From Candidatus Nomurabacteria bacterium (GTDB taxonomy: Bacteria; Patescibacteriota; Patescibacteriia; Magasanikbacterales; UBA922), in the NCBI GenBank assembly GCA_020632445.1, contig JACKFN010000002.1:36387-100386 (forward strand): a stretch of DNA of 64,000 bases. Reading direction: 5' to 3'. Under the pieces are notes generated by a model that was not told the origin of the DNA, made no database searches, and saw only the letters and a program-made list of their open reading frames with translations. Of the stretch, positions 5,517-60,396 are shown one piece after another. A program made the position numbers and the translations under genes. How positions within the stretch are numbered: position 1 is the first letter of the stretch; each line of letters begins with the position of its first letter.

Positions 5517-5685
5517 TCTGTCAAAAACTCACACCGACTATCGGAGCGTATTATTGCGATTATTATTTGCCAATGTGTAAGTCATAGTGAGTTTACTATA
5601 CCATCGATTGGCAAATACGTCAATACCTTGACAAAAAGCCCAAATCATGATATAGTTTTCCGTCAACCATCCCAAGGAGTATCCC

Positions 5686-5922
5686 ATGCACGTCGTGCTT
5701 TTCATCGTTGTCTGCCTCATCTTCTGGGGCATCTTCCGTCTGGTACTGTGGGTTATCGGCGGAGGTCTGCGCCTGACCAACTGGGCCGTGAGGAACCAGT
5801 GGGAGCGCCTCGAGCGAAACGACCCGGCGACCGCGGACAACGTCCGCAACTTCACCGCCAAAGCCATCCTCGTCATCGTAGGCATTCTCCTCTTCCTCAC
5901 CCTCATCGACATACTCACCTAG
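5686..5922 (+). CDS. small two-TM membrane protein (high-GC, foreign)
   Basis: 78 aa, GC3 very high, AAGGAG SD 7 nt upstream, followed by terminator 5985..6010. Confidence 0.45.
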   Translation: MHVVLFIVVCLIFWGIFRLVLWVIGGGLRLTNWAVRNQWERLERNDPATADNVRNFTAKAILVIVGILLFLTLIDILT

Positions 5923-5984
5923 CTCACCTGCGCGCAGTCCCCACGCTACGCTCTCCCGCAAGATTTTCAAATTTTTACGAGAGC

Positions 5985-6010
5985 AAAAAAGAGCCGTTTG
6001 GCTCTTTTTT
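5985..6010 (+). terminator. rho-independent terminator
   Basis: aaaaaagagcc-gttt-ggctctttttt. Confidence 0.6.
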
Positions 6011-6078
6011 GATTCTCTCTTGACCAGAATAGAAAAGAAAGTTAAAATGCGGATGGATTCAACCACAGGAGACCAGTC

Positions 6079-6894
6079 ATGGTCCAGCGTAACTTTGGGA
6101 ATGCTGCAGGTGAGCTTCTCGCTCACCACATCACCACCATCGCCATGCCAGGCAGGAAGGATGTGCTGGTCGATCAGATCATGCGACTCCTCCCGCGCAT
6201 CTTCAAACGTGTCCCGCAGGACGCGAGCTGGGGGTTCGACACCCACACGCGAGGAGATCCCGATCTAGGCTTTGTCTGGAAACGGGGCACGGCGCGAAGC
6301 GGTGACACCCGGGAAGACATCAAGCTCTACTTGCACTGGAACCCTGCTCTACCGGGGCTCTTCCGGGGGCGGAGCATCACAGGACGTGACCTCGAGCTTC
6401 TGATGCAGCTGTGCGAGGAACTGTTCTACCTCACGCTCACGCAAGCGATCAGGCTGGCCCAGGACATCGATTCTCTCATACCAGGCATCAAGCTCACCAC
6501 GAAGATCCGGTCGCCCGAAGGCACACAGGCCAACGGGGCAAACGACCACGTGCTTCGCATTCTGATCTACCAGCAGGTCCATCCAGACCTCGCTGGCCAG
6601 ATCGGCCAGGAACACGATGACCGCGACGGCCTCACGCTCGCCCTGCACGAGAGCAGCCCTGGACTCGAGTACCTTTCGCCGAGCGACGGCCAGTGGCGTC
6701 CAGCTTCATCTGATCCTGGTCAAGCGCTGGTATTTCCGGGCCTGAAGATGGGAGAGCTCACGGATGGGGACCTCCCCGCGCTCAGGCACCGAGTCATGGA
6801 CTCAACCGCATCCTTGAATCCAAGGATCAAGCGCGTGAGCATCGTCATGTTCATACATCCGTACAACGGCTACTGCAGACTACGAACCCACTAA
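6079..6894 (+). CDS. 2-oxoglutarate/Fe(II)-dependent oxygenase (IPNS-like superfamily), high-GC
   Basis: H-x-D in EHDDRDGLTLALHE (HxD followed by TLxL), distal His and RxS in LPALRHRVM...RVSIVMFIHP; GC ~62%, GC3 strongly biased. Confidence 0.6.
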   Translation: MVQRNFGNAAGELLAHHITTIAMPGRKDVLVDQIMRLLPRIFKRVPQDASWGFDTHTRGDPDLGFVWKRGTARSGDTREDIKLYLHWNPALPGLFRGRSITGRDLELLMQLCEELFYLTLTQAIRLAQDIDSLIPGIKLTTKIRSPEGTQANGANDHVLRILIYQQVHPDLAGQIGQEHDDRDGLTLALHESSPGLEYLSPSDGQWRPASSDPGQALVFPGLKMGELTDGDLPALRHRVMDSTASLNPRIKRVSIVMFIHPYNGYCRLRTH

Positions 6895-6898
6895 AAAC

Positions 6899-7672
6899 CT
6901 ACCCACCTTCCCCAAAAACCCTCAAGGCCTTTGACCAATCAGCTATTTCTTTTTCGTTGTGATAGAGAGTAAACTCATATACTAACTGGTGCAACTCATG
7001 CGCTATTTTTTTATCAAAATTTCCCATATCAAAAGCAGAAAAACCTTTTTCCAAAAAGAGTTCTAGTAAAAATAGCTGTGGTTTATTGATAGCTACCACG
7101 TGTTCACCAATTTTCTTTTTCATCTCGAATTCCTTTGGGCAAATAATTCCGCCTCCCTGAAAATAGAAACCAAAGGGTTTTTCTTTTTCAAAATCCTTTA
7201 AAAGCATTTCAGTCAGAGTACATCTATCCGTCACTGGCTCAAAACCAAATAAACACATGAGCTTGAGAAAAAAAACATCCATTGAAAACATCAGTGAGGG
7301 CCTATTCTGCGAGTTTTCAAGGTGTGTTAAAAAAAGATAGGTCAGGTCAAAGATACGTTCATCCACCTGCCAAGATTGCAGCAACCTATATAAAGTATTC
7401 ATGACAAAAGCAGCAATGGCAGTCTTAAGCAAATCACTGCGAATATCTGAAAAATATTCGACGCCATATACCTTGATCAAATACTGAAATTCCTTTCCGG
7501 GCGTGGTTTCTATCCGTACGACAGAAAACGGCTCAAGTTGAGCCGTATTTTTACTGACAATTTTTTTGACACCGCGTGCAAGCAAATCAAGCCTCCCCTG
7601 CTCTCGTGTATATACCGCAATAATTTGATCGCTCTCTCGATAATCGCGGCGATGCAATACAATGGCGTGCAT
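6899..7672 (-). CDS. recO: DNA repair protein RecO
   Basis: 257 aa; N-terminal OB-fold region MHAIVLHRRDYRESDQIIAVYTREQGRL... characteristic of RecO. Confidence 0.7.
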   Translation of the reverse strand: MHAIVLHRRDYRESDQIIAVYTREQGRLDLLARGVKKIVSKNTAQLEPFSVVRIETTPGKEFQYLIKVYGVEYFSDIRSDLLKTAIAAFVMNTLYRLLQSWQVDERIFDLTYLFLTHLENSQNRPSLMFSMDVFFLKLMCLFGFEPVTDRCTLTEMLLKDFEKEKPFGFYFQGGGIICPKEFEMKKKIGEHVVAINKPQLFLLELFLEKGFSAFDMGNFDKKIAHELHQLVYEFTLYHNEKEIADWSKALRVFGEGG

Positions 7673-9028: not shown

Positions 9029-10927
9029 CTAATTACTTTCCTTCACAAGCTCAGGCAACATCTTCAATTCTTCAGAAAAATCTTTCTCTCCGGTTCCAAG
9101 AGGATTATATCCACCAAGAATTTCTGTAAGATCATCAAAGCCATCACCGTCAGTATCAGCACTGCCTGGACTCGTCCCAAATATCATCTCATGAAACTCA
9201 TTAAGGCCATCTCCATCAACATCTGCTTCAAATTCTCCAAATCCAGCTTCACCATCAATACTCATAGAAAAATCCATACTGTCTACTACCATGACACTGG
9301 AAGGGAGGATCTTGTCTGCTTCCGGATACTCGTCCTTAGTTTCATAGTTGTACTCTGGCATTACTATAGTAAATCCTCCGGGAATAGCGCTATCACCAAA
9401 AGTAATACCGGAGTAATCACTTGTTGATTCGTCTTCAGTTTCTATGGTTGGCAAACCAACAGGACTCTTTAGCTGTACATACTTATCTCGAAATACAAGC
9501 TCATACGAAGCGCCATCATCCATACTTTTGTAGGCAAAAGCTTCCAAACGATCTTCTCCGAATATCATTGCGACATAAGGACTTAACTTTGGATCACAGA
9601 CTTCTTCAAATCCGTTGTGACTTAAACAGTTTATTCCACCATTTTGCACGACGACAAAATCCGCACTCTTCGGATAGTGACCATTGTCAACAAAATACAA
9701 TTCCAATCCAGTTTCAAGTTGCTTTACTGTCGATACCATACGACTTTCTCGTGCGCTTGCCATGGATGGCTCCATCATGACACCCATAACTTCCTGCACG
9801 ATTTGCTCAAAAGGCATTGCATCCTGAGGTTCCTCAACTTCAAATGCTTCATTAAATTTGTCTGCACCTACAAAAATTTTAACCTGAAAAGGAACGGGAG
9901 CTGCCAAAAAATCTCCCTCCCAGGTACTCCCAATTTCTACGCCGATCTCTCTAAGATATTTGGTTTGCTTATCAATTTTTAAACTTATCTCAAATACATC
10001 AGCATTTTCCTTTAGGTCTTTCAAATCACGAATGTGCATTTCATTTTCAAACGATGACCGAATCTCTGGATCTCCAGAAATTTCAGAAATCCTATTTAAA
10101 AACACCTCAAATTTTTTAGTATCTATGTCGACTGCAATATGGTAAACATTTTCGTCTTCCGACTCTTTGTAGGAAAATGTCATTGGTCGTATCTCACGGA
10201 AAGCTGCTATAACTTCTTCCGACATATCCTTTGAATCATCAAAAGCATCCTCTGTCATCTTCAAGCCACCACCGGCAAGTGCGCCCATCGATTCAATAAC
10301 AATCCACCTATTGAGATAGTTTCCTATAGTCTGAAGCACCATCTCCTGCGTGACTCCATCTGGCTTTCCAAATGATACATCTTGTAAACGAAAGTAATCT
10401 TTGTCTCCTATATTGCGATAGTCAGCCGTAAAAGCCGCAAGCTGCGAGTCGAGAGACACGGTTGTCTGCATCCTTTGCTCCGTGCCAGTGGCATTATTTC
10501 CATTTGCCGTCATAGTTATAACAGCATCAAGCTGGTCTGTCCCCCATTCTTCCTTAATGCTGGTGCCGTCTGAGGAACCGAGTGTAAGACTGAATCCTTC
10601 TCTGCTCTTTGTATCACTTTCTGTCTGCTGTGCTGCGTCAAGATCAGAGAGGTCGGCATGAAGCTCCAACCGCAGCTTCGTTTCGTAGGTTTCGATTTCT
10701 TCCATGGCAGAAATCATCTCAAGGACAACATCTTGTGGGTCCGGTGGAGTACTCGTTTTTTTTAAAGCATTTTGCACCATTCCACTCATAAAGGCATACG
10801 CTCCACCAGCGATAAGCAAAATCACGATCGCCAAACCAACGATGATGGGAGCTTGCGATGGAGTTTGCTGCATGGAAGATACGCTTGACTGCCGCGTATT
10901 TGGAATATTAGAAGGTTGCTGATCCAT
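9029..10927 (-). CDS. large membrane-anchored extracellular protein with C-terminal Ca-binding DxDGDG repeats
   Basis: 632 aa; N-terminal TM; C-terminal DVDGDGLNEF...DTDGDGFDD thrombospondin-type-3-like repeats. Confidence 0.45.
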   Translation of the reverse strand: MDQQPSNIPNTRQSSVSSMQQTPSQAPIIVGLAIVILLIAGGAYAFMSGMVQNALKKTSTPPDPQDVVLEMISAMEEIETYETKLRLELHADLSDLDAAQQTESDTKSREGFSLTLGSSDGTSIKEEWGTDQLDAVITMTANGNNATGTEQRMQTTVSLDSQLAAFTADYRNIGDKDYFRLQDVSFGKPDGVTQEMVLQTIGNYLNRWIVIESMGALAGGGLKMTEDAFDDSKDMSEEVIAAFREIRPMTFSYKESEDENVYHIAVDIDTKKFEVFLNRISEISGDPEIRSSFENEMHIRDLKDLKENADVFEISLKIDKQTKYLREIGVEIGSTWEGDFLAAPVPFQVKIFVGADKFNEAFEVEEPQDAMPFEQIVQEVMGVMMEPSMASARESRMVSTVKQLETGLELYFVDNGHYPKSADFVVVQNGGINCLSHNGFEEVCDPKLSPYVAMIFGEDRLEAFAYKSMDDGASYELVFRDKYVQLKSPVGLPTIETEDESTSDYSGITFGDSAIPGGFTIVMPEYNYETKDEYPEADKILPSSVMVVDSMDFSMSIDGEAGFGEFEADVDGDGLNEFHEMIFGTSPGSADTDGDGFDDLTEILGGYNPLGTGEKDFSEELKMLPELVKESN

Positions 10928-26903: not shown

Positions 26904-27830
26904 CTAGTCGTGATTGACCTGGCAGCCGCCGGTTTTGCACAGGTGAATCCCTGCGTTCACCAGATCTCGCCAAATCTCATTGAGCCAATCCTGGAGCAAT
27001 ACCTCTGGAACATTGGCGTACTGATTCCCAGGGAAACGCTCGTAAAAGGCCTCAGTCAGGTCAAACGTGTGGGTGTGGTAGGTGGCTCTCACGAGCTCAG
27101 AGGTGAACCTCCCCCACTCCTCGTGGGTGTACACGGTCCAGGTGAGGATGATCTTTGGCTTTATCTGGATGCTCGCCATGGCTGCCAAAGCCTTCTTGAA
27201 GGCACCGGCCTTGGGCGTGACCGTGTAGCGAAGCCATTCGCCCAGCCCTCGAATCTTGCCCTCCATCCTCTCGATGGCAGCATTGATCTTCTCTGGTGTC
27301 GGCCTGGTGTAGTCCGGACAGATGAACACCGCCAGTGGTGGCTTGACCTGTGAAAGCCCCTGATCAAGGCTCGCGCGAGCGCTGTCTCCATTGCCACGAT
27401 CCACGAAAATGGCAATATTGAGCGCGTCCATGACCTTGCCGAATAATGTGTCAGCAAGCTCTACCTTCATGATGACCTTAAGCCACATGCAGACGTCAGT
27501 AACCGTCTTGTTGGTCTGTGCAATGGCCGTGTACGTCGGGTGGACCACTAGGGCGATAGCGGCTTCGTCATCCGCAATGCTCACATGGTCACCAAACGAG
27601 ACCGACTTCTGGAGCAGTAGGACCTTGTTGCAGATCAACTCCACAGTGCGGCCCCACCAGTACGGGACCTTGCAGGTCCAGTCAGCGCGGCGCCCCAGTC
27701 GGTTCACCCAGACAGCGACGACCATGACGGTGAATGCCGCTGCCACCAGTGTCCCTACGACGCCAACGAGCACGGCAAGCATGACCGCAAACATCTTCCA
27801 TGGCCACAAGGCCACACGAATCAGCTTCAT
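26904..27830 (-). CDS. high-GC hypothetical membrane-anchored protein (foreign)
   Basis: ~58% GC with GC3 bias inside a 38% GC genome; N-terminal TM helix; start placed at MKLIRVALWPW. Confidence 0.5.
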   Translation of the reverse strand: MKLIRVALWPWKMFAVMLAVLVGVVGTLVAAAFTVMVVAVWVNRLGRRADWTCKVPYWWGRTVELICNKVLLLQKSVSFGDHVSIADDEAAIALVVHPTYTAIAQTNKTVTDVCMWLKVIMKVELADTLFGKVMDALNIAIFVDRGNGDSARASLDQGLSQVKPPLAVFICPDYTRPTPEKINAAIERMEGKIRGLGEWLRYTVTPKAGAFKKALAAMASIQIKPKIILTWTVYTHEEWGRFTSELVRATYHTHTFDLTEAFYERFPGNQYANVPEVLLQDWLNEIWRDLVNAGIHLCKTGGCQVNHD

Positions 27831-30988: not shown

Positions 30989-31345
30989 ATGGCCGACTTT
31001 CCTCAAGCTGGTGTGCATGGGTTCTGGGGACTTGAACTGGAGCGCGATAACGATGGACACCAGATAGTCTCGGGAGCTGGAGTTACCTTCATCTGGATCC
31101 CGGATAGGCCCTGGATCATCGTCGCCAAGCATCTGGTCGCAAATTGCTACCTCGGAATCGTTGGAATCAGCGGAATCATTGGCCTCGAGCGGATTCTGGC
31201 TACAAACGAAGACACGATAAAATGGATCGAGTCACTCCTTCGAAATCACAGTGATCTCGAACCACAAGACGTGACGAGGCATGCCAATACCCTGTTGAGT
31301 CAGCTGCAAGAGATCATCAAGGCGTACCCACCTAATCGCACGTAG
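30989..31345 (+). CDS. GC-elevated hypothetical protein
   Basis: ~55% GC ORF starting MADFPQAGVHGFWGLELERDNDGH...; hairpin terminator 31374..31400 downstream. Confidence 0.35.
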   Translation: MADFPQAGVHGFWGLELERDNDGHQIVSGAGVTFIWIPDRPWIIVAKHLVANCYLGIVGISGIIGLERILATNEDTIKWIESLLRNHSDLEPQDVTRHANTLLSQLQEIIKAYPPNRT

Positions 31346-43786: not shown

Positions 43787-43990
43787 TCACCGACTGAAAC
43801 GATGCGCCCAGTAAGGCATGGTGGCGGTGCTCCAGAAGTCGACCCCGAGCTGCTCAGCGGCGCTCAGCGCGATCTGGATGATCGACCACCCCTGCCTCAC
43901 AGATTGCTTGTAGAACGCCTCGATCCCCTCGACGACTCGTCGAACGAGCTTGTGGTGCTGGCGGCGAGTCAACGTCTTCTGCTTGCTCAT
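43787..43990 (-). CDS. high-GC small ORF, possibly a gene fragment
   Basis: 67 aa MSKQKTLTRRQHHKLVRRVVEGIEAFYKQ... with near-uniform G/C third positions; embedded in ~500-bp GC-rich patch. Confidence 0.35.
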   Translation of the reverse strand: MSKQKTLTRRQHHKLVRRVVEGIEAFYKQSVRQGWSIIQIALSAAEQLGVDFWSTATMPYWAHRFSR

Positions 43991-45024: not shown

Positions 45025-45348
45025 ATGAAAAGCATCGTATATGGAACGTGGGTCGCGGAAGACGGCAAGTGGTCCTGCAACTGCCCCGCAGGTACCAAGC
45101 CACCCAAGGCCAAAGTACATCGACACGATGTTGATCGATGCAACGAGTGTCAGTCCAGTCGTCCCGAGAAGCAATTTGGTATCTGGCTTGACTACTACGC
45201 CTGGAAATGCGCCTGTGACTTACCGAGGGCAGACCAGGCAAGGTGGTGTCCTGACTGCGTGAGATTTAGACCAGCCCCAAATGGAACCGACGCGGAAGGA
45301 AATCCACGCCCGCCTCTTACCATGGAAGAAGCCCTTCGTCCAGTTTGA
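45025..45348 (+). CDS. high-GC Cys-rich zinc-ribbon protein 1
   Basis: 107 aa; WSCNC, CNEC, WKCAC, WCPDC pairs; AGGAGG SD 6 nt upstream; GC3-biased. Confidence 0.55.
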   Translation: MKSIVYGTWVAEDGKWSCNCPAGTKPPKAKVHRHDVDRCNECQSSRPEKQFGIWLDYYAWKCACDLPRADQARWCPDCVRFRPAPNGTDAEGNPRPPLTMEEALRPV

Positions 45349-45473: not shown

Positions 45474-45734
45474 ATGTCGACCCGCATCCACCATGACCGT
45501 TATTTTCAGTGCACCAAGTGCGGACAAAATCACCGGCCGGATGAGATCCCCCGGGAGTGCACCGGCCGCTACAGTGAGGAAAGCATCTGCAGCGCTGACC
45601 TCAGCAGACAGCTCGAGGAGAAGCGGTGGCGACAATGTCACACGTGCCACTGCTGGAACCATCCCCACAACCCGAACATCCCCCACCGGTACACCAACTG
45701 CGCCAAATGCGACACCGAGCTTCCCACCTCCTGA
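45474..45734 (+). CDS. high-GC Cys-rich zinc-ribbon protein 2
   Basis: 86 aa; CTKCG, WRQCHTCHC, NCAKCD motifs; GC3-biased. Confidence 0.5.
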   Translation: MSTRIHHDRYFQCTKCGQNHRPDEIPRECTGRYSEESICSADLSRQLEEKRWRQCHTCHCWNHPHNPNIPHRYTNCAKCDTELPTS

Positions 45735-45898: not shown

Positions 45899-46663
45899 AT
45901 GGCGAAACGAAGCAAATGTGCTCAGTCACGGATCACGCCAGGAAAGCGCAAGCGTGGTAAGGGAGGCGGTCCGCAGCGTGTGACCGCCCGTAAGCGGGGC
46001 GCGGCAGCGCGCTACTGCCCCCAGTGTGGTGGAACCGACAACAGCCACAGCCATGGGGTCAGGGACCCCAAGACCGGTGTGCTGTGCTACAGTCCCCGGC
46101 TCTGTCGGCCCGCCGACTGCACGCACTGTGGGATCCAAATCCTGGTGGGTCACGTACAGACCGCACACAGCAACTGCGGTCTGCTGGATCGGTCGAAAAC
46201 GAGCATCGATCACCACGCCACCACGACCACGGTCACACCGCCGACGGTGCGGATGACGGGTCCGGACGGCAAGCGTGTCCCCGAAGCCGAGGAGACCTGC
46301 GAGCACTGCGGTGAGAACGTTGTCAGCATCCATAATCACTACCGTGTGACTGGTTCTATCAACAGACGCGTTCGATGGATGTGCGAAAGTGCCGAAAAAA
46401 AGGCGCGTAAGTCTGCTGCAGCTGCGGCGGCCACTGACAAGGCCAAAGCGGCCGCGTCGAAGCCTGCTGCTCAACCGAGCCGCGTGCCCCTCTCGCTGCC
46501 GGAAGGAATTTGGACAGGAAACGGTACAACGCACTGGACCTGTACCACGCCTGGATGTCGTTGTACTAACAACTACACCAGTGACGAATTGTGCTACCGT
46601 TGCGGCAAATCACGCCGCCCCAAGGGTAACCCGCCTCGTCAGTCCTCCACCTACCGCTGGTAA
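45899..46663 (+). CDS. high-GC basic multi-zinc-ribbon protein 3 (RanBP2-like W-x-C-x4-C-x3-N-x7-C-x2-C finger at C-terminus)
   Basis: 254 aa; YCPQCGG, CRPADCTHCG, TCEHCGEN, WTCTTPGCRCTNNYTSDELCYRCG; GAGGT SD; GC3 ~90%. Confidence 0.55.
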   Translation: MAKRSKCAQSRITPGKRKRGKGGGPQRVTARKRGAAARYCPQCGGTDNSHSHGVRDPKTGVLCYSPRLCRPADCTHCGIQILVGHVQTAHSNCGLLDRSKTSIDHHATTTTVTPPTVRMTGPDGKRVPEAEETCEHCGENVVSIHNHYRVTGSINRRVRWMCESAEKKARKSAAAAAATDKAKAAASKPAAQPSRVPLSLPEGIWTGNGTTHWTCTTPGCRCTNNYTSDELCYRCGKSRRPKGNPPRQSSTYRW

Positions 46664-49940: not shown

Positions 49941-50426
49941 CTATTTTGGTGGGTTGACTGAAAAAAGCCGACACTGCTCAGGCACCGCGCGTAGCGGACA
50001 GTGCAGCCTCTGCTGGTGGGTGGCAAGGCGATCACACACACCACAAGACGCACTCCACGGCACAATGTCCCATGTATCGACAGACGACTCTCTCCATCCT
50101 GCCTTTTGCGCAAGATGAGAGACTTTGTCGTTGTGTGTGAGTAGAAATGCAGAAATGTCGTTGGCAAGTACGAGAAGCTTACCAAAAATCTCACTCGCCA
50201 AGCCCCTGCCACGCGCACGAGGATGCACCCAGACAGAACCAAGTTCAAACCAACGATCATCCGGGGTTTCCCACAGCGCCGCAAAAGCAACAATGACCAA
50301 GCCCTCACTGACAAGAACGGCCTGTCCCTCTAGAAACTTCCTCTCCAAAAGGTCGGCGGAAAGCCGGCCACCAAGCAAATCAGACTCGCTATTCAGGTTG
50401 TTAGCCAAATCATCCCAGCGGTACAT
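49941..50426 (-). CDS. GNAT-family N-acetyltransferase (GC-elevated)
   Basis: WVHPRARGRGLASEI (motif A R/Q-x-x-G-x-G/A); start placed at MYRWDD; ~55% GC. Confidence 0.55.
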   Translation of the reverse strand: MYRWDDLANNLNSESDLLGGRLSADLLERKFLEGQAVLVSEGLVIVAFAALWETPDDRWFELGSVWVHPRARGRGLASEIFGKLLVLANDISAFLLTHNDKVSHLAQKAGWRESSVDTWDIVPWSASCGVCDRLATHQQRLHCPLRAVPEQCRLFSVNPPK

Positions 50427-51953: not shown

Positions 51954-52658
51954 TGAGCCCGCGATGGAATGTCGCGGGCGCTCAGGTAGGGTAGGTTGTT
52001 GGTGGGATGTACTAGGCGAGGAGGGACTGGACGGCGTCGGCGATGCGGTTCTGCTGCTCGGGCGTGCCGGCCACGAGCATCCCGAGCTTGCAGTCGCCGA
52101 TGGTGCCCCAGTTGAACACCACCACGCCAGTGCCGGTCTTCGAGTCGAACACGTGGCCGTTCAGATCCAGGCGACTGAAGTCGATGTGGTTGACCTGGAA
52201 GTTCCTGGCCATCCACTGCGGAATCTGCAGACGCTCGGCCACGATCGTCGGGAACGTCGCACCGTTGTAACGCGGGTTACACTCGATCATCAGGAAGTCA
52301 CCATCAGCGGTCACCACCACGTCGAAGGCGAAGTACCCCCGCATCCCGCGACGCGCCAGCTCGCTGGCCACCGGATCGGTGATCCCCCAGGGCTGGTACT
52401 GCGTCGGGTAGCGGTTGCCATCGTGGGCGTTGCCCTTGAGGATCTGCACACTCACCGCGCCGCGCTTGACGCGACCCTGGCCATCCACGTGGTACTGGAC
52501 GTTCAGGAAGGCCTTGGCGCCCGCGACCTCACGCTGGATCTGGAACGGAACATCGTCCGCCAGCTGATCGAGGTTGGTCTCCAGCTCATGACGATCGTTG
52601 CACCGGATCACGCCCAGACCCGACACCGAGACCGCGACCTTGAGGTACACGGGGTACG
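51954..52658. repeat. 705-bp direct repeat copy A (1 mismatch vs 53411..54115)
   Basis: Sequence from tgagcccgcgatggaatgtcgcgggc... to ...gaggtacacggggtacg is identical between copies except g/t at 52179 vs 53636; covers the 3' ~214 codons of each ATP-grasp gene plus 58 nt of 3' flank including hairpin GCCCGCGA-tggaatg-TCGCGGGC. Confidence 0.9.
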
Positions 52659-53106
52659 GGAACGACCAGGTGCTCCCGAGACCGGCCTTGTTGTCGTAAA
52701 GCCAGGTCTGCGGGGTGGGCACGCGCAAGGTTCGACACAACGACACGAGCTGGTTCTTGTCGTTCATCTTGGCCGTGATGTCGTACCGCCTCTGGTTCGG
52801 GCGCACCGCGTGCGCCTGGTGGCCGAAGAAGAACACGTCGAGCTCGTGGTTCAAGAACTCCCCCTGGGTCGCGACGCCGAAGCTCGCGTCCCAGACCACC
52901 TCGCCGGTGACCGACAGACCTACCTCGACGTAGTGCGCCTGGATCCAATCCCAGTGTTCGGCGAGCCTCGAATCCAGTTGGATCGTGTCCCACTGCTGCG
53001 TCGCGCACAGCGTACGCCCGCTGTAGTTGGGCAGCCCGGCGATGCGGTGGTGCTCACCGTAGCCCAGGCAGTCGAGCATGTCGTGGTTGAAAATTCGCTT
53101 GTTCAC
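52012..53106 (-). CDS. ATP-grasp ligase paralog A (high-GC, GTG start)
   Basis: ATP-grasp core: VYLKVAVSVSGLGV, FQIQREV, FAFDVVVTADGDFLMIECNPRYNG; GC3 ~90%; GGGGAG SD before GTG; N-terminal half ~70% identical to paralog B. Confidence 0.75.
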   Translation of the reverse strand: MNKRIFNHDMLDCLGYGEHHRIAGLPNYSGRTLCATQQWDTIQLDSRLAEHWDWIQAHYVEVGLSVTGEVVWDASFGVATQGEFLNHELDVFFFGHQAHAVRPNQRRYDITAKMNDKNQLVSLCRTLRVPTPQTWLYDNKAGLGSTWSFPYPVYLKVAVSVSGLGVIRCNDRHELETNLDQLADDVPFQIQREVAGAKAFLNVQYHVDGQGRVKRGAVSVQILKGNAHDGNRYPTQYQPWGITDPVASELARRGMRGYFAFDVVVTADGDFLMIECNPRYNGATFPTIVAERLQIPQWMARNFQVNHIDFSRLDLNGHVFDSKTGTGVVVFNWGTIGDCKLGMLVAGTPEQQNRIADAVQSLLA

Positions 53107-53410: not shown

Positions 53411-54115
53411 TGAGCCCGCGATGGAATGTCGCGGGCGCTCAGGTAGGGTAGGTTGTTGGTGGGATGTACTAGGCGAGGAGGGACTGGACGGCGTCGGCGA
53501 TGCGGTTCTGCTGCTCGGGCGTGCCGGCCACGAGCATCCCGAGCTTGCAGTCGCCGATGGTGCCCCAGTTGAACACCACCACGCCAGTGCCGGTCTTCGA
53601 GTCGAACACGTGGTCGTTCAGATCCAGGCGACTGAAGTCGATGTGGTTGACCTGGAAGTTCCTGGCCATCCACTGCGGAATCTGCAGACGCTCGGCCACG
53701 ATCGTCGGGAACGTCGCACCGTTGTAACGCGGGTTACACTCGATCATCAGGAAGTCACCATCAGCGGTCACCACCACGTCGAAGGCGAAGTACCCCCGCA
53801 TCCCGCGACGCGCCAGCTCGCTGGCCACCGGATCGGTGATCCCCCAGGGCTGGTACTGCGTCGGGTAGCGGTTGCCATCGTGGGCGTTGCCCTTGAGGAT
53901 CTGCACACTCACCGCGCCGCGCTTGACGCGACCCTGGCCATCCACGTGGTACTGGACGTTCAGGAAGGCCTTGGCGCCCGCGACCTCACGCTGGATCTGG
54001 AACGGAACATCGTCCGCCAGCTGATCGAGGTTGGTCTCCAGCTCATGACGATCGTTGCACCGGATCACGCCCAGACCCGACACCGAGACCGCGACCTTGA
54101 GGTACACGGGGTACG
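53411..54115. repeat. 705-bp direct repeat copy B
   Basis: see copy A. Confidence 0.9.
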
Positions 54116-54596
54116 TGAAGGCCACGTCACGCAGCGCCGACTTGTTGTCGAACAACTGCGTCTCGGGCGTGGGCACGCCCAGCTCGCGGCACAGGGCGAT
54201 CAGCTTGTTCTTGTTGTTCATGGCCTCGGTGATGTCGAACCACTGCTGGTTCGGGCGCACCGCGTGCGCCTGGTGGCCGAAAAAGAACACATCGAGCTCG
54301 TGGCCCGCGAACTCGGACGCAGCCGCGACGCCGAAGCTCGCGTCCCAGACCACCTCGCCGGTGACCGACAGACCGACCTCGGCGTAGTGCGCCTGGATCC
54401 AGTCCCAGTGCGGCGACAGCGCACCGTCCAGCTGGATCGTGTCCCACTGCTGCGTCGCGCACAATGGACGGCCCGTGTAGTGCTTGAGCACCGCCCACAT
54501 AGCCGCCTGATCGGCACGAACTCCGGCGTTGGCAACGCCCAACGGGTTCATACCGAAGGAATCCAAGACGTCACCGTTAAAAAGCTTTCGCTTCAT
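53469..54596 (-). CDS. ATP-grasp ligase paralog B (high-GC)
   Basis: Start at MKRKLFNGDVLDSFG aligning with paralog A N-terminus (alternative in-frame start 15 codons upstream); C-terminal 214 aa identical to A. Confidence 0.75.
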   Translation of the reverse strand: MKRKLFNGDVLDSFGMNPLGVANAGVRADQAAMWAVLKHYTGRPLCATQQWDTIQLDGALSPHWDWIQAHYAEVGLSVTGEVVWDASFGVAAASEFAGHELDVFFFGHQAHAVRPNQQWFDITEAMNNKNKLIALCRELGVPTPETQLFDNKSALRDVAFTYPVYLKVAVSVSGLGVIRCNDRHELETNLDQLADDVPFQIQREVAGAKAFLNVQYHVDGQGRVKRGAVSVQILKGNAHDGNRYPTQYQPWGITDPVASELARRGMRGYFAFDVVVTADGDFLMIECNPRYNGATFPTIVAERLQIPQWMARNFQVNHIDFSRLDLNDHVFDSKTGTGVVVFNWGTIGDCKLGMLVAGTPEQQNRIADAVQSLLA

Positions 54597-54791: not shown

Positions 54792-54798
54792 ATATGGG

Positions 54799-54999: not shown

Positions 55000-55003
55000 A
55001 TAT

Positions 55004-55276: not shown

Positions 55277-55344
55277 CACTTCACAATTCAATCTTCATTG
55301 GTGGCCTTACACACTTTTTTGGTAAAGCCGGTTTTTTGTTTGCT

Positions 55345-55385
55345 CTTGTGACTCTGGCTTTTCCAGAGTCTTTTTGTTTTTTCAA
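55345..55385 (+). terminator. terminator after trpR-like gene
   Basis: gactctgg-cttttc-cagagtc followed by tttttgtttttt. Confidence 0.55.
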
Positions 55386-55432
55386 AGGGCTGGCAAAAAA
55401 AATTTGCCGGCAAGAGAAAACGCAAGGAGACA

Positions 55433-56376
55433 CCATGGAACTTCAACGTTTTGTGCTCGAGATGCTCCCCCAACTGCTCGAGTGCGGCAACGCCGCAGCC
55501 ATTGCTGTCTGGGCGCGCGAGCATCTACAGCAGTTGCCTGCTTCAAGGGATGAGCTTACGGTCCTCGATCTATCCATGATCGAAACGAGTCTGGCTCACA
55601 GTGGCGTGCCCATACCAGCATCGCTCACCAGTCTACTGATGAACCTCACAAACGGTGGCCCTTTCCTCACCTACCACCAACTGGTGATGGTAAACCCTGC
55701 GCAGGCCACTCGATGCTTCACTCGTGGACCTTCCGGTGAGGCCGAACGTGCTTTTTACCTTGCCCACAAGGAAATTGAGCATGGCCTCGCCATGGCATGC
55801 GCCAAAATCATGAAGGCCTTGGGACACACTGACCCCCAACAGGCCTGCAATGCTCTGCATGGCATTGAGCATGACACAAGCGTTCTGATCGAAAACACTC
55901 GACACCTCGCTGGGATGAATCCAGAACACTTCGCTGCCTTTCGGGGATATCTCGCCAGCCATCCAGTCCATGGATTCCCTGGTCCAAGCGGTCTGTTTTC
56001 TCCAGGAGTCTACCTCCTCGAGCTGCTCCTGCGTGGCCCACAGAGCACGTGGCCCCAGTTCTTTGCAAATAGAGGCACATGCTTTGACAACGAATCGCTG
56101 CGAAGTATCACGGGCGCCATGGAGGATGGGCACACGCTCACGGCACACATGATATCACTCGACTGGCCACCACGCATGCATGAGGTCGTCCGGTTCCTTG
56201 AGACACTGCTCGACAGCTTCCGTGGTCACCACTACAAAGCCGTACGCAAACAGATTCCACAAGCGCTCACCCCAGGTGGAACAGGAACCGCTGGAGAATC
56301 TGCAGGACAATTCCTGCGTGATCGAATGCGTGAAAGCAAAGCCTCCCACCGAAATCAACCCACCAAACGGGAGTAG
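55433..56376 (+). CDS. tryptophan 2,3-dioxygenase-like protein (high-GC)
   Basis: AFRGYLASHP...LLELLL and GTGTAGESAGQFLRDRM resemble TDO motifs DFRGYL..FRLLE and GTGGSSG..YLR; AAGGAGA SD; ~60% GC. Confidence 0.45.
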
Positions 56377-56407
56377 GGCTTACCTACTCCCATTCAAACT
56401 CCTTACT

Positions 56408-57448
56408 ATGCAGACACAATTTCAAAATCACACCATATCACAAATTATCAAAGGCGGATGGCAACTTGCTGGGGGTCATGGCAACATAAATGCACAGCAG
56501 GCTATCAGTGATATGTTTTCATTTGTAGATGCAGGCATAAACACCTTTGACTGCGCCGATATTTACACCGGTGTTGAAGAAATGATTGGCCATTTTCGAA
56601 TGCAGTACCAAAAAAAACATGGACTAAGCGAACTTGAAAAAATCCATATTCACACAAAATTTGTGCCTGACTACGAAAGTCTCCATGAGATTTCACTGTC
56701 ATCTGTCGAAAATATTATCGATAGATCATTACGACGCCTCCAAACGGAAAGACTTGATCTGGTACAATTTCATTTTTGGGATTTTTCGATAAACACCTAT
56801 ACACAAGCAGCACTCCATCTCAAAACACTTCAGCAAAAAGGAAAAATAAAACACATTGGTCTGACCAATTTTGACGTTGTTCACATGAAAGAGCTTCTCG
56901 ATCTTGGAGTTGAAATCGCTTCAAACCAAATTCAATATTCGCTCATTGATAACCGATCAGAAAAAGGAATGCTTGAATTTTGCAAGCAAAACGATATTGC
57001 AATTTTTTGTTATGGTACTGTTTCCGGTGGACTGCTAAGTAACAGATATCTTCACGCACCTGAGCCACACGCCCCATTTGAAAACAGATCACTCACAAAA
57101 TACAAACTCATCCAAGAAGAACGTGGAAATTGGACAGTCTTCCAAACCCTTTTGCAAGTATTACATGAAATTGGTCAAAAGCACCACGCGAGTATTACCA
57201 ATATTGCAACACGATACATTCTTGATCATTCCAGCGCAAAAGCGGTTATTATAGGAGCTCGAGATGCAACTCATCTGCAAGATAATATCAAACTTTTTGA
57301 CTTTTCACTTGATACAAGTGATAGGGAAAAAATTCAAAAGGTACTTGAAAGTTTCACTCCATTGCCTGGCGATATATATGAACTTGAAAGAGATAAACAC
57401 GGCAAACACGGAAGCATTATGAAATACAATCTTAACAAAAAAATATGA
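56408..57448 (+). CDS. aldo/keto reductase
   Basis: AKR fold motifs (FDCADIYTG, GLTNF, IQYSLID); start at MQTQFQ. Confidence 0.7.
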   Translation: MQTQFQNHTISQIIKGGWQLAGGHGNINAQQAISDMFSFVDAGINTFDCADIYTGVEEMIGHFRMQYQKKHGLSELEKIHIHTKFVPDYESLHEISLSSVENIIDRSLRRLQTERLDLVQFHFWDFSINTYTQAALHLKTLQQKGKIKHIGLTNFDVVHMKELLDLGVEIASNQIQYSLIDNRSEKGMLEFCKQNDIAIFCYGTVSGGLLSNRYLHAPEPHAPFENRSLTKYKLIQEERGNWTVFQTLLQVLHEIGQKHHASITNIATRYILDHSSAKAVIIGARDATHLQDNIKLFDFSLDTSDREKIQKVLESFTPLPGDIYELERDKHGKHGSIMKYNLNKKI

Positions 57449-57789
57449 AAAAAAGCGAAACCTTTACCCTCTACGACCTGCATGTCGAGGTCGTTGGAGA
57501 CCCAAAAACATTTGTATGCAAACACATACTGGGAAGCGCATTTGTGATACAGGGAGAAAATCTCGTTTTTGATAAGCAAAAAACTTTCAGTATGTATGCT
57601 TTGGCTGCAATGCTTCCACTCCTGCCTGCTAAGCAAAGGCCTACACATGAAAATGACTGGATGACCAGTGATGAAAACATCGCATGTCCAGATCCACATT
57701 GCGGCGCAAGGTTTAAAATATCACGCACCGGAGTGCGTGAATTTCATCGGTCAGATTGTACGGTTGTGCCGATTGAGAAAACAGCGTAG
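57445..57789 (+). CDS. small Cys-containing hypothetical protein (TIGR04076-like)
   Basis: 114 aa with CKH...GSAF...ACPDPHCG pattern. Confidence 0.3.
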   Translation: MKKSETFTLYDLHVEVVGDPKTFVCKHILGSAFVIQGENLVFDKQKTFSMYALAAMLPLLPAKQRPTHENDWMTSDENIACPDPHCGARFKISRTGVREFHRSDCTVVPIEKTA

Positions 57790-57802
57790 CAACATCACAA
57801 CA

Positions 57803-58687
57803 CTACCCAACCACCAAAACTACTTTCCTCCCATTTTGAACATCTCCACCATTCCAATCAGCAATGGCATTCATCAAATCGTCATACTCGTACATAAAGT
57901 TTTCACCAAACTGTGTCCCGGGATCGTTGGTGATGAACTTCGTCGAATTATACCCTCGAATCACGAGCGCGTGGTACGCTGGACCATCACCCCGAAAATT
58001 TGGATTCGGCAATTTTTTTCCATTGGCAACGACAAATACAGGATGTCCTGACGCGAGATATCCTTTAATCTGTTCCACTGTTGGATTCTCAATAAACTCG
58101 GTATTGTGGCCAAGAAATTTCGAAGCAAACAACTGTTGCACCTTTTCAATTTCAATACTTCCACCCCACCCCTGTTGCTCCTCCCAATCAATCATTTTTT
58201 GTAGTTCATCTTTGGCAAACAAGGGGCTGAGTTTGTACTTACGGTAATATGCATCCATCATAAGTGCAGCCGCTTCTTCACAAGCATCCTGCCATGGCTG
58301 TTCCCAATTTTTTTCTGGAGCTTGAGATGTGAATGGCACGTCAAGATTAAGAGAAATTTCCTCACGTACTTCTGGCTCTTCTTGCTCCTGCAAGTCATTT
58401 TCTGCTTCAACCTCTTGCTGCGTAGTACTCGTTGTTACTATCACGCCAACCTCATCTGTGGAAGTAGCATTAAGGAGTTCTTCCGGCATGCCCAGTGCCT
58501 CAGGGATACGAATTCCATCGAAATCATCCCGAGTTTTGAGGACGATTCCAGGATCTACATCATGCATCTCACGAGGAAAAATATGTCCACGCCAAACATA
58601 GGCAGTTCCAAACATCGAAACAACCATCACAAAAATACAAAAAAAATTCAATGGCTTTGGATTCATAGTGCATAAATATAGTATCAT
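57803..58687 (-). CDS. membrane-anchored C39-like (papain-fold) peptidase domain protein
   Basis: VPFTSQAPEKNWEQPWQDACEEAAALMMDAYY resembles Peptidase_C39_2 N-terminal Cys region; N-terminal TM. Confidence 0.4.
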   Translation of the reverse strand: MILYLCTMNPKPLNFFCIFVMVVSMFGTAYVWRGHIFPREMHDVDPGIVLKTRDDFDGIRIPEALGMPEELLNATSTDEVGVIVTTSTTQQEVEAENDLQEQEEPEVREEISLNLDVPFTSQAPEKNWEQPWQDACEEAAALMMDAYYRKYKLSPLFAKDELQKMIDWEEQQGWGGSIEIEKVQQLFASKFLGHNTEFIENPTVEQIKGYLASGHPVFVVANGKKLPNPNFRGDGPAYHALVIRGYNSTKFITNDPGTQFGENFMYEYDDLMNAIADWNGGDVQNGRKVVLVVG

Positions 58688-58745
58688 GTATTGAAAAAAA
58701 TCGGAAAATACGCTACAGTGCTAGCACCTCGTGACAAAAATTTAC

Positions 58746-59951
58746 ATGAAACTTTTTGAAACCATCGCACAATCAAGCGAGTGCCAAGCGAGAGCTGGCA
58801 TTATCCACACCGATCACGGAGACATTGAAACTCCTATTTTTATGCCTGTAGGAACCAAGGCAACGGTGAAAAGCCTTGATCCTGATGACCTTCACGACCT
58901 TGATGCGCAGATTATCCTTGCCAATACCTACCACCTGCATCTTCAACCTGGCGCTGACCTCATTGATTCCTTTGGCGGGATACATAACTTTATGCAATGG
59001 GAGAGACCCGTCCTAACTGACAGTGGTGGATTTCAAGTTTTTTCTCTTGGTGCCCAAAAAGACGCCAATGCCAATGGAGAAAAACTCGTCAAAATCGACG
59101 AAGATGGCGTAGACTTTCGAAGCTTTATCGATGGGTCAAAACATCGATTCACTCCAGAATCTGCCATCGATATCCAACACAAAATTGGTGCCGACATCAT
59201 CATGGCATTTGACGAATGTACTCCCGATGCCGCCCCAATCGATTATGCACGTGAAGCAATGGAAAGAACACATCGGTGGGCAAAGCGTTGTATTGATGAA
59301 CATGAAAAGCAGATAAAAAAAAGAGAAGATTCATATCGCAAATTCCTTTTTGGAATTATCCAAGGTGGAAATCATAAACAACTTCGCGAAGAGTCTACCA
59401 AAGCCATTTGTAAAATGAACTTTGATGGTATTGCGATTGGGGGAGAATCCATTGGCTACAACATGGAAGGCACCAAAGAAATTCTTGATTGGATTGCCCC
59501 ATACCTTCCCGCAGACAAACCCCACTACACCATGGGCGTAGGTTTTTCGCCTTTTGATTTATTTGATGTGGTAGAAAGAGGAATAGATATGTTTGATTGC
59601 GTAGCACCAACACGCATGGCACGAAATGGGGCACTCTATGTAACCCCTCAAACTTTTGCAAAGCAAGCTACAGGAAATGAACAAAATCCAAGACGTGTCT
59701 GGATTGATATCACCAATGCCAAGTATGCTGATGATCATCTTCCGATTGATCCCCTCCTTGAAAATAGTCCACTGCAACATTTTTCTCGTGCCTACATTCA
59801 TCACTTATTTAAAGCGAATGAGCTGCTCGCCTACAGGATTGCAACGCAACATAACCTTTTTTATCTCTTAAACCTGATGAAACAGATGAGAGAAGCGATA
59901 AAAGAAGATAGATTTCTGAAGTTTAAAAAAAAATGGGGATACAAACAATAA
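58746..59951 (+). CDS. tgt: queuine tRNA-ribosyltransferase
   Basis: TPIFMPVGT...DSGGFQ...zinc CxCxxC..H region; alternative start at 58731. Confidence 0.85.
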   Translation: MKLFETIAQSSECQARAGIIHTDHGDIETPIFMPVGTKATVKSLDPDDLHDLDAQIILANTYHLHLQPGADLIDSFGGIHNFMQWERPVLTDSGGFQVFSLGAQKDANANGEKLVKIDEDGVDFRSFIDGSKHRFTPESAIDIQHKIGADIIMAFDECTPDAAPIDYAREAMERTHRWAKRCIDEHEKQIKKREDSYRKFLFGIIQGGNHKQLREESTKAICKMNFDGIAIGGESIGYNMEGTKEILDWIAPYLPADKPHYTMGVGFSPFDLFDVVERGIDMFDCVAPTRMARNGALYVTPQTFAKQATGNEQNPRRVWIDITNAKYADDHLPIDPLLENSPLQHFSRAYIHHLFKANELLAYRIATQHNLFYLLNLMKQMREAIKEDRFLKFKKKWGYKQ

Positions 59952-59976
59952 TACATCAAAACATTCCAAACTTACA

Positions 59977-60006
59977 AAAGACACGCCTCGAGCGTGTCTT
60001 TGCTTT
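59977..60006 (+). terminator. terminator after tgt
   Basis: aaagacacgc-ctcga-gcgtgtctttgcttt. Confidence 0.65.
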
Positions 60007-60039
60007 ACAAAATGAAAAAATCGGGGTAAAGTGTTTGCA

Positions 60040-60358
60040 CACTCACACGCTGCTTGGCAGCACTGGAGGCATCTTGAGCCGAGAAATCATCTTTCTCCTC
60101 ATCGGCGGACCGTTCATGGGATGGACACTCCGTCCTTTCGAGATCATCGAAGACAGCGATGACGACGAAGATCCGGACCCGTCCGCGCCGATCCCGGAGA
60201 TCACTCACCATAACCTCTTCCCCCAGCCGCTGACTCCCCCCGCTGCCCAGCGCAGGCCCGACCGGCGCCTGGCGAACAGTGGAGCGCACCGCCGGGCGAT
60301 CTACAGGCCCAACACCTTCCGCACCCCGACCCGCGCCGCCAGCCGCAGGCACGGCTGA
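60040..60358 (+). pseudogene. high-GC coding fragment without credible start (remnant of acquired gene)
   Basis: ~320 bp at ~65% GC with strong GC3 bias in + frame (…EDSDDDEDPDPSAPIPEITHHNLFPQPLTPPAAQRRPDRR…); sits between tgt terminator and queA terminator. Confidence 0.4.
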
Positions 60359-60396
60359 ACCGGGCGCCCCACCGCGCCCACTCCCCTTCCATACAT

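Follow-up and report, generated by a model that had tools for sequence, protein, structure and literature searches.

Phage morons are defined as independent transcription units that are inserted between backbone genes and deviate from them in GC content (PMC3594210), and in the hyperplastic regions of T4-type phages orphan reading frames (ORFans) are flanked by PeSL (promoter early stem-loop) modules, consisting of a sigma70-like promoter and a stem-loop terminator, whose recombination inserts, deletes, or replaces single genes (PMC2839356). Here we describe thirteen GC-rich open reading frames (ORFs) in a 64,000-nucleotide stretch of a Candidatus Nomurabacteria genome (GenBank assembly GCA_020632445.1, contig JACKFN010000002.1, positions 36,387 to 100,386; hereafter the window), which form moron-like units among low-GC genes and in most cases share a C-rich motif, referred to here as the tag, shortly after the stop codon. 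Atypical GC content is the textbook mark of recent horizontal transfer, and the Lawrence-Ochman model describes horizontally acquired islets that undergo amelioration; among C-rich motifs of 3′ untranslated regions (UTRs) or small RNAs that pair with Shine-Dalgarno regions is the UCCCC motif in the 3′ UTR of Staphylococcus aureus icaR. We found no described GC-rich gene class of Candidate Phyla Radiation (CPR) bacteria in the searchable literature.

Judged by their predicted signals, the units appear to have a promoter and a terminator of their own and a GC content unlike that of their neighbors, as the moron definition has it, and like morons they lie between conserved backbone genes. They differ in being chromosomal, with ribosomal, tRNA-modification, and repair genes as neighbors and no phage genes around, in that some are conserved over deep divergence, and in the C-rich 3′ tag, which is no part of the moron definition. 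They recall PeSL regions in that terminator hairpins of the window run straight into TTGACA boxes between units and two hairpin modules are similar, but the modules form no highly repeated family and share only 14–15-nt similarities, the genome is cellular, and PeSL regions are not marked by a contrast in composition. Integron cassettes are likewise one-ORF units with a 3′ element common to non-homologous ORFs, and three of the units stand in tandem in one slot; here, however, the units have predicted promoters and terminators of their own and are dispersed rather than arrayed. An integron was rejected, with no IntI-type integrase domain among the scanned ORFs and no attC-like imperfect palindrome with R and L core sites, as was a diversity-generating retroelement, there being no reverse transcriptase in the window and no long repeat other than an ATP-grasp gene duplication with a single mismatch; a bAvd-like gene in the related locus L089 (13399–13794) stands alone, without a reverse transcriptase or a template/variable repeat pair. 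With Lawrence-Ochman islets the units share atypical GC content and codon usage, presence/absence polymorphism, and, for some, a position by tRNA genes, but their composition is undecayed at saturation, no donors were found, and they are interleaved with low-GC partner genes. Like icaR-type motifs, the tag is an unpaired C-rich 3′ UTR motif that either precedes the terminator or is displayed in the loop of a hairpin, but its core is CCACC rather than CCUCC, and it shows no pairing preference for its own 5′ UTR.

GC-rich units and their common 3′ tag

Sliding-window GC plots of the window, which has 44.1% GC overall, reveal nine discrete GC-rich blocks that resolve into the thirteen ORFs (Table 1); a further peak, at 29.0–30.5 kb, is the 16S rRNA gene. 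The ORFs have a GC content of 0.52–0.69 and a GC content at third codon positions (GC3) of 0.54–0.89, compared with a GC3 of about 0.26–0.44 in the native genes and about 0.36 in the backbone. Their coordinates were fixed by GC3, homology, and NCBI protein matches (MCB9798xxx, locus tags H6758_), because automatic ORF calling took wrong frames inside the GC-rich blocks. Codon usage of the set is of the type found in GC-rich genomes (TAC 0.95, AAC 0.79, CTG plus CTC 0.70), and its amino acid composition is moderately shifted. The backbone is typical of CPR bacteria, with a long ribosomal-protein operon, tuf, a lone 16S rRNA gene, fusA-rpsG-rpsL, ndk, uvrD, tgt, queA, a malic enzyme gene, yceG, recO-ruvX-map, adk, and secY; about 90% of the native genes lie on the minus strand, and GC skew declines steadily along the window. 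The nearest relatives of its UvrD are 59–65% identical and are mostly labeled Magasanikbacteria, the record itself being labeled Ca. Nomurabacteria.

The GC transitions fall within about 30–60 nt of the ORF ends, and the GC-rich stretch slightly exceeds the ORF, beginning about 20–40 nt before the start codon and ending about 45 nt past the stop. The 5′ start of the rise is a G-rich Shine-Dalgarno region (GC 0.56, versus 0.32 in native genes), and the promoter regions keep the native GC level. Such limits are compatible with, and do not prove, the docking of an ORF unit between regulatory DNA. For most units, consensus scans (for several) or direct reading (for the rest) recognized a promoter-like site of the TTGACA type, a Shine-Dalgarno sequence, and a terminator-like hairpin; the promoter and terminator assignments are matches to consensus sequences. 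Assemblies of three sequencing runs in the Logan collection (SRR12358675, SRR12358676, and SRR14234112) match the window with 100% identity over 26585–29084 and 54434–58569, spans that include both edges of the block at 26904–27830 and of the block of the tryptophan 2,3-dioxygenase (TDO)-like gene, and the upstream edge of the ATP-grasp block; both junctions of unit 3 were recovered in contig L173, and those of unit 12 in L174–L176. An assembly chimera is thereby excluded, as far as assemblies can show.

A preliminary description of this DNA had reported such a GC mosaic and argued against an assembly chimera, and on both points our results agree with it, sliding-window GC showing the blocks where it placed them. 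It was also right to see gene-sized units in slots of a conserved backbone, since tgt and queA, for example, are adjacent in the related loci L004 and L089. Its further statement that each block coincides with a single ORF requires amendment: the units are gene-sized, but three of the blocks hold two or three ORFs, each with an AT-rich spacer. Nor is third-position bias extreme throughout, being only moderate (0.54–0.60) in 30989–31345, 45025–45348, the GNAT gene, and the TDO-like gene; and of the AT-rich flanks that it described, the promoters and terminators are indeed AT-rich, but the Shine-Dalgarno region is G-rich. The ATP-grasp pair lies on the minus strand, the long plus-strand ORFs there being antisense artefacts, and what it called a fragment at 60.0–60.4 kb holds a 79-codon ORF with the common 3′ tag and a terminator.

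The tag is associated with the GC-rich class: CCCACC or CCACCT occurs no more than 45 nt past the stop codon in 11 of the 13 GC-rich ORFs and in none of 53 native genes (Fisher p = 7e-11), the background being 1.8% of 45-nt windows. The CCCACC core sits 6–33 nt past the stop codon, and the first 45 nt after the GC-rich ORFs comprise 40% C and 9% G. In every case the tag is in the sense orientation; every predicted fold leaves it unpaired or places it in a loop, and it lies upstream of the terminator hairpin. Non-homologous neighbors have in common a longer version, CCCACCTT(T/C)(C/T)TCCC, and the tags of units 7 and 8 are 86% identical, while their proteins are not detectably related. Relatives have the tag too: it follows unrelated GC-rich genes of L087 (a 37.5% GC genome; GC3 of the genes 0.80) and the GCS2 gene of L170, and it occurs in L001 and L006. 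Two explanations of the tag were rejected. As an anti-Shine-Dalgarno sequence for its own 5′ UTR, its pairing energy is −10.5 kcal/mol versus −12.0 kcal/mol with other 5′ UTRs (permutation p = 0.99), and its pairing with native Shine-Dalgarno regions is weaker than that of native 3′ UTRs; as read-through coding sequence, its reading frames are inconsistent. No Rfam family was found in the UTRs or the GC-rich patches, and scans of all retrieved loci for YCCCACCW and for a 14-mer were uninformative.

A possible extra small unit lies at 43400–43690 on the minus strand, with a promoter-like site (TTGACA-17-CATACT, 43683–43655), short ORFs, a terminator-like hairpin, and CCCACCT at 43495–43501; the tagged class may thus have one more member here, in a state of decay.

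Origin, age, and turnover of the units

Searches for a donor point inward. By exact look-up among approximately 15 billion proteins, each of eight ORFs is alone in its 90%-identity cluster, apart from one alternative-start copy. The ATP-grasp protein has 114 homologues, of which the best outside the window are 58% and 49% identical and the next best, 40–47% identical, are in Patescibacteria, cyanobacteria, and Gammaproteobacteria; the 2-oxoglutarate (2OG) oxygenase has a single detectable relative (55% identical), and the best match of the TDO-like protein among 1.84 billion representatives is 39% identical, with sub-threshold matches to Trp_dioxygenase/IDO among its homologues. The best ATP-grasp and 2OG matches are located in low-GC patescibacterial contigs from relatives of the same lineage, and no actinobacterial source of the ATP-grasp, 2OG, or TDO-like proteins was found in 5.8 billion clusters or the 1.84 billion representatives. 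The ATP-grasp tree unites all GC-rich members in a single clade (bootstrap 89), which falls inside a larger one of Patescibacteria (bootstrap 100). Chromatiales that are GC-rich and carry the family were rejected as donors because they form a separate clade (bootstrap 99); cyanobacteria also stand apart. A phage origin was likewise rejected, within the low sensitivity of the searches: 8-mer seeding found no IMG/VR relatives, and PHROGs gave only generic 2OG-oxygenase and acetyltransferase domains. In dinucleotide signature the GC-rich ORFs differ strongly from native genes (delta* 124, versus 33 between native sets of different genomes) and come nearer to generic GC-rich genomes and to the corresponding GC-rich sets of the sisters. 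Public protein searches gave no close homologue of the GC-rich ORFs outside the clade formed by this organism and its relatives, and the class is restricted to that clade; as far as public data reach, the cassette pool is internal to the lineage.

The related loci compared included L004 (from ENA), L005 (from JGI; the same arrangement, obtained independently), L001, L006, L087–L089, L170/L171, L172, and L177. In the ATP-grasp and 2OG/small-ORF slots, sister genomes carry the same genes, which are GC-rich there too. In L004 the order is malic enzyme, queA, tgt, C39 peptidase, ATP-grasp, M20 peptidase, uvrD, and ndk; its native proteins are 44–66% identical to those of the window, and its ATP-grasp gene has a GC3 of 0.70, against 0.17–0.44 in the neighbors. 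L001 has a 58%-identical ATP-grasp (GC3 0.87) adjoining an M20 gene (0.41), and L170/L171 have C39, GCS2 (0.86), two ATP-grasps (0.89 each), M20 (0.44), and a 441-aa gene (0.81). Beside M20 in all of these (L004/L005, L001, L170/L171), the ATP-grasp GC3 is thus 0.70–0.89 in backbones of 0.33–0.54. A regional hotspot of GC-biased conversion is excluded, because the low-GC M20 gene of L170 is sandwiched between genes of GC3 0.81–0.89, and the transitions at ORF ends are sharp. L006, which is more closely related (87% identity in SecY and Map, 72% in RecO), has the same order as the window: tRNA-Asn, a small GC-rich ORF orthologous to unit 1 (GC3 0.75), a 2OG oxygenase 55% identical to unit 2 (GC3 0.62), and recO, in a backbone of 0.33–0.37, with promoters and terminators homologous to those of the window. 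In the more distant Patescibacteria L002/L007 and L172 the ATP-grasp/M20 pair has native or near-native GC, and at approximately 80 further loci of the ATP-grasp family gene GC departs from flank GC by only −0.09 to +0.08. An intrinsically GC-rich gene family is therefore rejected, and the GC contrast is specific to the clade.

Several GC-rich genes are paired with low-GC partners. ATP-grasp and M20 peptidase genes form a conserved pair across Patescibacteria, and unit 10 lies upstream of a low-GC M20 gene as in L002, L004, L170, and L172. In P0200, a distant homologue of 690 aa, the TDO-like protein is fused to an aldo/keto reductase, and a low-GC aldo/keto reductase gene is the next gene in the window (the pair spanning 55435–57448), which suggests that the two act in one pathway; the pair adjoins a TrpR-family regulator gene (54704–55276). 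Such pairings indicate that the GC-rich genes are integrated partners rather than a foreign island.

The high GC content of the class is stable and does not represent the fading trace of a recent import. At fourfold-degenerate sites of identical residues, orthologues agree hardly more often than expected from random codon choice (0.32/0.27, 0.45/0.40, and 0.36/0.31), and at these saturated sites GC is 0.56–0.89, with 0.86–0.89 in the window and L001. The two ATP-grasp copies of the window provide a test within one genome. Their last 214 codons, tags, and hairpins are identical but for one nucleotide (about 700 nt; 51957–52720 and 53414–54177), a single difference across the C-terminal half, tag, and hairpin that indicates a recent gene-conversion tract; in the first 150 codons, synonymous divergence (dS) is 0.82 and nonsynonymous divergence (dN) 0.285 (dN/dS 0.35), and GC3 is 0.90–0.91 in both copies. 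The synonymous differences between the copies comprise 10 between two strong bases (G or C) and 11 between a strong and a weak base. No compositional decay with synonymous divergence is thus seen, either at saturated fourfold sites or between paralogues. Fourfold saturation, the paralogue test, and the tree together rule out recent import and simple amelioration for ATP-grasp. Ordinary translational selection is excluded as well, because the ribosomal-protein and elongation-factor genes have a GC3 of 0.35, with NNC codons only mildly preferred.

Turnover of the units is also apparent. Sister genomes have the ATP-grasp and 2OG/small-ORF units, still GC-rich, at the slots that these occupy in the window; in comparison with L004, L089, and L170, the slots of the Cys-rich trio, the GNAT gene, the TDO-like gene, and the ORF between tgt and queA lack these genes. 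Between uvrD and ndk the window has its three Cys-rich ORFs, L088 a GC-rich ORF of 133 aa, L177 one of 185 aa (GC3 0.74; genome 37% GC), L089 a GC-rich patch, L004 a gene of normal GC, and L087 nothing. The slot of unit 13 is empty in L004 and L089, where tgt and queA are directly adjacent, and other genes separate them in L088 and L170; GNAT with an AstE-like gene, and TrpR with the TDO-like and aldo/keto reductase genes, are missing from L004 and L170. Between L001 and L170 the M20 proteins are 93% identical (about 85% in nucleotides) but the adjoining ATP-grasps only 48%, the L001 ATP-grasp grouping with the window copies (bootstrap 100), and nucleotide identity climbs directly past the L001 stop codon and a 35-nt tag-bearing insert. 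This contrast could reflect ORF-level replacement or the sorting of tandem paralogues; the identity break adjoins a terminator, and no extended repeated promoter/stem-loop module was found and no recombinant demonstrated. Finally, the GC-rich genes lie 8 on the plus and 5 on the minus strand, compared with 4 and 49 for the native genes (p = 8e-5), a near-random orientation as expected for inserted DNA.

Table 1. GC-rich units and GC-rich blocks of the window; block values are sliding-window GC, unit values GC3, and promoter and terminator entries are consensus matches.
Feature	Coordinates	Strand	Description	GC3 or GC	Promoter-like site	Tag	Predicted hairpin or terminator
Unit 1	5686..5922	+	78-aa two-helix membrane protein, after tRNA-Asn	0.85	TTGACA-17-TATAGT, 5628-5656	weak only: CTCACCT / CCCCACG	terminator 5984-6011
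Unit 2	6079..6894	+	2OG-Fe(II) oxygenase, 271 aa; Pfam PF03171 and PDB relatives; beside recO	0.73	6020-6048	CCCACC 6902-6907, within antisense recO 3′ end	
Unit 3	26904..27830	-	308-aa membrane protein between tuf and 16S rRNA	0.73	27896-27868	CCCACC 26891-26896 (minus strand), 9 nt past stop	
Unit 4	30989..31345	+	118-aa ORF; weakest block	0.60		CCCCACCTCACCTCC 31357-31371	strong hairpin 31371-31405 (z = -6.7)
Unit 5	43787..43990	-	67-aa ORF	0.82		CACCCACCA 43751-43756 (minus strand), 30 nt past stop	
Unit 6	45025..45348	+	107-aa Cys-rich protein, UvrD-NDK hot slot	0.54		45359-45364	terminator hairpin 45382-45410, next TTGACA box directly behind
Unit 7	45474..45734	+	86-aa Cys-rich protein	0.78		CCCACCTTTCTCCC 45749-45762	terminator hairpin near 45785-45806
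Unit 8	45899..46663	+	254-aa basic Cys-rich protein	0.67		CCCACCTTCTTCCC 46672-46685	
Unit 9	49941..50426	-	GNAT acetyltransferase, 161 aa; Pfam PF00583	0.54		CCCACC 49926-49931, in hairpin loop	9-bp hairpin 49917-49941
Unit 10	52012..53106	-	ATP-grasp L-amino-acid-ligase-like protein, copy 1, 364 aa	0.89		52001-52006	GC-rich hairpin 51957-51979
Unit 11	53469..54596	-	ATP-grasp, copy 2, 375 aa; Pfam PF02655 weak	0.88		53458-53463	
Unit 12	55435..56376	+	313-aa distant TDO/IDO-like protein	0.58		CCCACC twice, just within 3′ end of gene (56345, 56359)	
Unit 13	60119..60358	+	Pro/Arg-rich ORF of 79 codons, or a decayed remnant, in the tgt/queA slot	0.81		CCCACC 60368-60373, in hairpin loop	hairpin 60362-60379; terminator 60398-60423
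Block 1	5661-6880			0.58			
Block 2	26901-27860			0.57			
Block 3	30961-31220			0.53			
Block 4	43701-44040			0.57			
Block 5	44981-46700			0.56			
Block 6	49901-50440			0.53			
Block 7	51921-54620			0.61			
Block 8	55381-56380			0.56			
Block 9	60021-60440			0.62			

Explanations of the GC-rich class

We favor, at about an even chance of its being correct, the explanation that these genes are a clade-wide class of old, self-contained, single-gene GC-rich units, a pool of moron-like cassettes internal to the lineage and stable in composition. Each unit would consist of a sigma70-type promoter, a G-rich ribosome-binding site, a GC-rich ORF, an unpaired, C-rich and G-poor tag, and usually a hairpin terminator, and the units, oriented nearly at random, would occupy intergenic slots in a conserved backbone whose own genes are co-oriented. 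Some would be long-term residents by low-GC partners (ATP-grasp/M20, 2OG/recO, and TDO-like/aldo-keto reductase), and others the variable cargo of hot slots, such as UvrD-NDK with its different, unrelated GC-rich genes in each genome; units would be gained, duplicated, lost, and homogenized by gene conversion, and single ORFs would apparently be exchanged for others. Their composition may be upheld by a GC-favoring force on the transcribed or exchanged segment itself, for which biased gene conversion in frequent cassette-level recombination and mRNA selection are candidates, and the C-rich tag could be the 3′ edge of the exchanged unit, a common RNA-level signal, or both. A pool within the phylum agrees with published work in which most detected transfers into Patescibacteria have donors in the same phylum (PMC12455944).

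A number of observations weigh against a cassette pool. Two of the thirteen units lack a clean tag, as do the L088 units and one unit of L170, and the tag of unit 2 overlaps the coding end of recO. The sister comparison covers only the ATP-grasp and 2OG/small-ORF units; the remaining units are ORFans, the TDO-like gene having distant homologues only. The contrast between L001 and L170 could come from differential loss of tandem paralogues or from transfer of M20, and the L001 contig spans only 2 kb. The Pfam-scanned ORFs of the window include no integrase, transposase, or reverse transcriptase, a generic GC-rich dinucleotide signature would fit an outside source too, and we know of no mechanism that holds GC3 at 0.8–0.9 gene by gene in a genome of 37–48% GC.

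An unlikely alternative, on our assessment, is a vertically inherited regulon without cassette mobility, in which selection keeps the mRNAs GC-rich and provided with a C-rich 3′ element; protection from AU-directed RNases, Rho loading, or binding of a poly(C)-type protein are examples of what might be selected. It would account for the conserved synteny, for GC3 kept at saturating divergence and between the ATP-grasp paralogues within the genome, for a GC rise that follows the transcribed segment from 5′ UTR to tag rather than codons alone, and for a tag that is always sense, unpaired, and upstream of the terminator. It does not readily explain why unrelated GC-rich ORFans share one slot across genomes, why orientation is near-random, why non-homologous ORFs have the tag in common, or why L001 and L170 are incongruent. 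Moreover, the proteins are shifted as well, with lysine making up 0.26–0.38 of lysine plus arginine in the GC-rich ATP-grasps versus 0.69–0.73 in low-GC orthologues; the ribosomal-protein genes, presumably the most highly expressed, are at a GC3 of only about 0.35; and the sole specific RNA model tried, pairing of the tag with its own Shine-Dalgarno region, failed.

Continual import from an unsampled GC-rich reservoir (a plasmid, a phage, or a patescibacterial sister lineage), with short-lived chromosomal copies that are re-seeded at hot slots, seems to us distinctly unlikely. Gene turnover at hot slots, the possible allele replacement between L001 and L170, a foreign-like dinucleotide signature, and the predominance of intra-phylum transfer in Patescibacteria (PMC12455944) all speak for it, as does the position of three units that abut tRNA genes: unit 1 of the window (tRNA at 5410–5482) and its L006 counterpart, both by tRNA-Asn, and the GC-rich operon of L087, which ends 88 nt from a tRNA gene (5122–5194). 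Yet every recovered context of the ATP-grasp clade and of the 2OG unit is a low-GC backbone, the 5.8 billion clusters and 1.84 billion representatives hold no closer homologue, IMG/VR holds no relative and PHROGs only generic domain matches, and each lineage would have needed re-insertion by the same functional partner.

A process directed by the tag and confined to the transcript, which both moves the units and keeps them GC-rich, is a further, improbable proposal; it may take the form of RNA-mediated (retro-) copying primed at the tag, or of a GC-biased conversion machinery that recognizes the tag. It would explain the span of high GC from 5′ UTR to tag, the host-like promoters and terminators, and the occurrence of the tag with unrelated ORFs, and, if true, it would be an undescribed way for a bacterium to hold a gene class at a distinct base composition.

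We give little credence to single ancient transfers from GC-rich donors followed by slow amelioration, in which the spread of GC3 from 0.54 to 0.89 reflects age. The continuum of GC3 among units, the lower GC3 of some sister orthologues (0.70 in L004, 0.62 in L006), and the small GC excess of ATP-grasp genes in other Patescibacteria (+0.04 to +0.08) are as it predicts. It is contradicted by a fourfold-site GC of 0.86–0.89 in the window and L001 despite saturated synonymous sites, by paralogues at a dS of 0.82 without erosion, and by the nesting of the GC-rich ATP-grasp clade in low-GC patescibacterial homologues rather than by GC-rich taxa.

The preliminary description itself proposed that gene-sized pieces had been acquired repeatedly and recently from a high-GC donor, for instance an actinobacterial host, a model that we consider highly improbable in spite of the GC-rich-genome type of codon usage, the gene-sized boundaries, and the near-random orientation. 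Its donor has not materialized: for the three searched proteins the best matches are 58%, 55%, and 39% identical, none of those named is actinobacterial, ATP-grasp groups with Patescibacteria (bootstrap 100), and each looked-up ORF is alone in its 90% cluster. Nor does the word recent hold at the ATP-grasp and 2OG loci, where diverged sisters have orthologues in the same slots, GC-rich and with saturated fourfold sites, an outcome that the description had itself named as refuting recent transfer; the tag is common to the relatives too. An assembly chimera or contamination, conceivable in that the source is a metagenome-assembled genome (MAG), has negligible probability given that three independent run assemblies are 100% identical over junctions and that the same architecture recurs in unrelated samples and assemblers (L004/L005, L006, L087, L088, L170/L171, and L177).

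Further features and implications

Not all variable genes of this lineage are GC-rich, as shown by a low-GC insertion between map and adk relative to L006 (window 9029–13030, versus L006 8492–8501), which encodes a 632-aa protein, a periplasmic binding protein, and a TrmB regulator. Compositional heterogeneity also runs in both directions, since L004 has unusually AT-rich genes at 9191–10285 and 437–2473 (GC3 0.17 and 0.23, versus about 0.35–0.44), one of which is the M20 peptidase gene adjoining the GC-rich ATP-grasp gene. In L089 the UvrD-NDK patch (12264–12560) is about 300 nt of GC-rich DNA without a convincing ORF or Rfam match.

Between the two ATP-grasp genes, at 53247–53330 on the minus strand, there is a 27-codon hydrophobic ORF (MKRNQQHSLIIDILVLILRSVGVGLRLSR) with its own terminator (53196–53222); with GNAT, M20 peptidase, and AstE/AspA-like genes nearby, it might encode the leader or precursor peptide of a ligase-based peptide pathway. 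Downstream of ndk lies a gene for a small acidic peptide with a Cys/Gly-rich tail, conserved in two genomes (window 44112–44297, minus strand, ...EEVCCGGCEGCGCNSIM; L089 13842–14084, ...EEEGCCGGGGCCGGDGDCC). The unit at 43.8 kb is about 0.9 kb from a tRNA-Pro(GGG) gene (42833–42909), an anticodon of note in a small, AT-leaning genome. The 16S rRNA gene (29057–30539, minus strand) stands alone, with a Phd/YefM antitoxin-domain gene (28022–28933) and a GC-rich unit in the place expected for 23S; with no 23S downstream of 16S, the rRNA operon is unlinked in the window. L089 also contains, at 14131–14252 and 15294–15536, a 9-nt tandem repeat (AACAATAGT) in approximately 10 or more copies and a 106-nt unit present more than twice that overlaps a tRNA gene.

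Automated pipelines would label the GC-rich genes as recent imports or contamination, an inference that fails here, and both the cleaning of MAGs by GC content or k-mers and compositional detectors of horizontal transfer will misjudge such genes. The question that they raise is what force holds GC3 near 0.9 in single genes of a genome of 37–48% GC. If the pattern is true genome-wide, it would represent a clade-specific flexible gene pool in CPR bacteria with a compositional equilibrium of its own.

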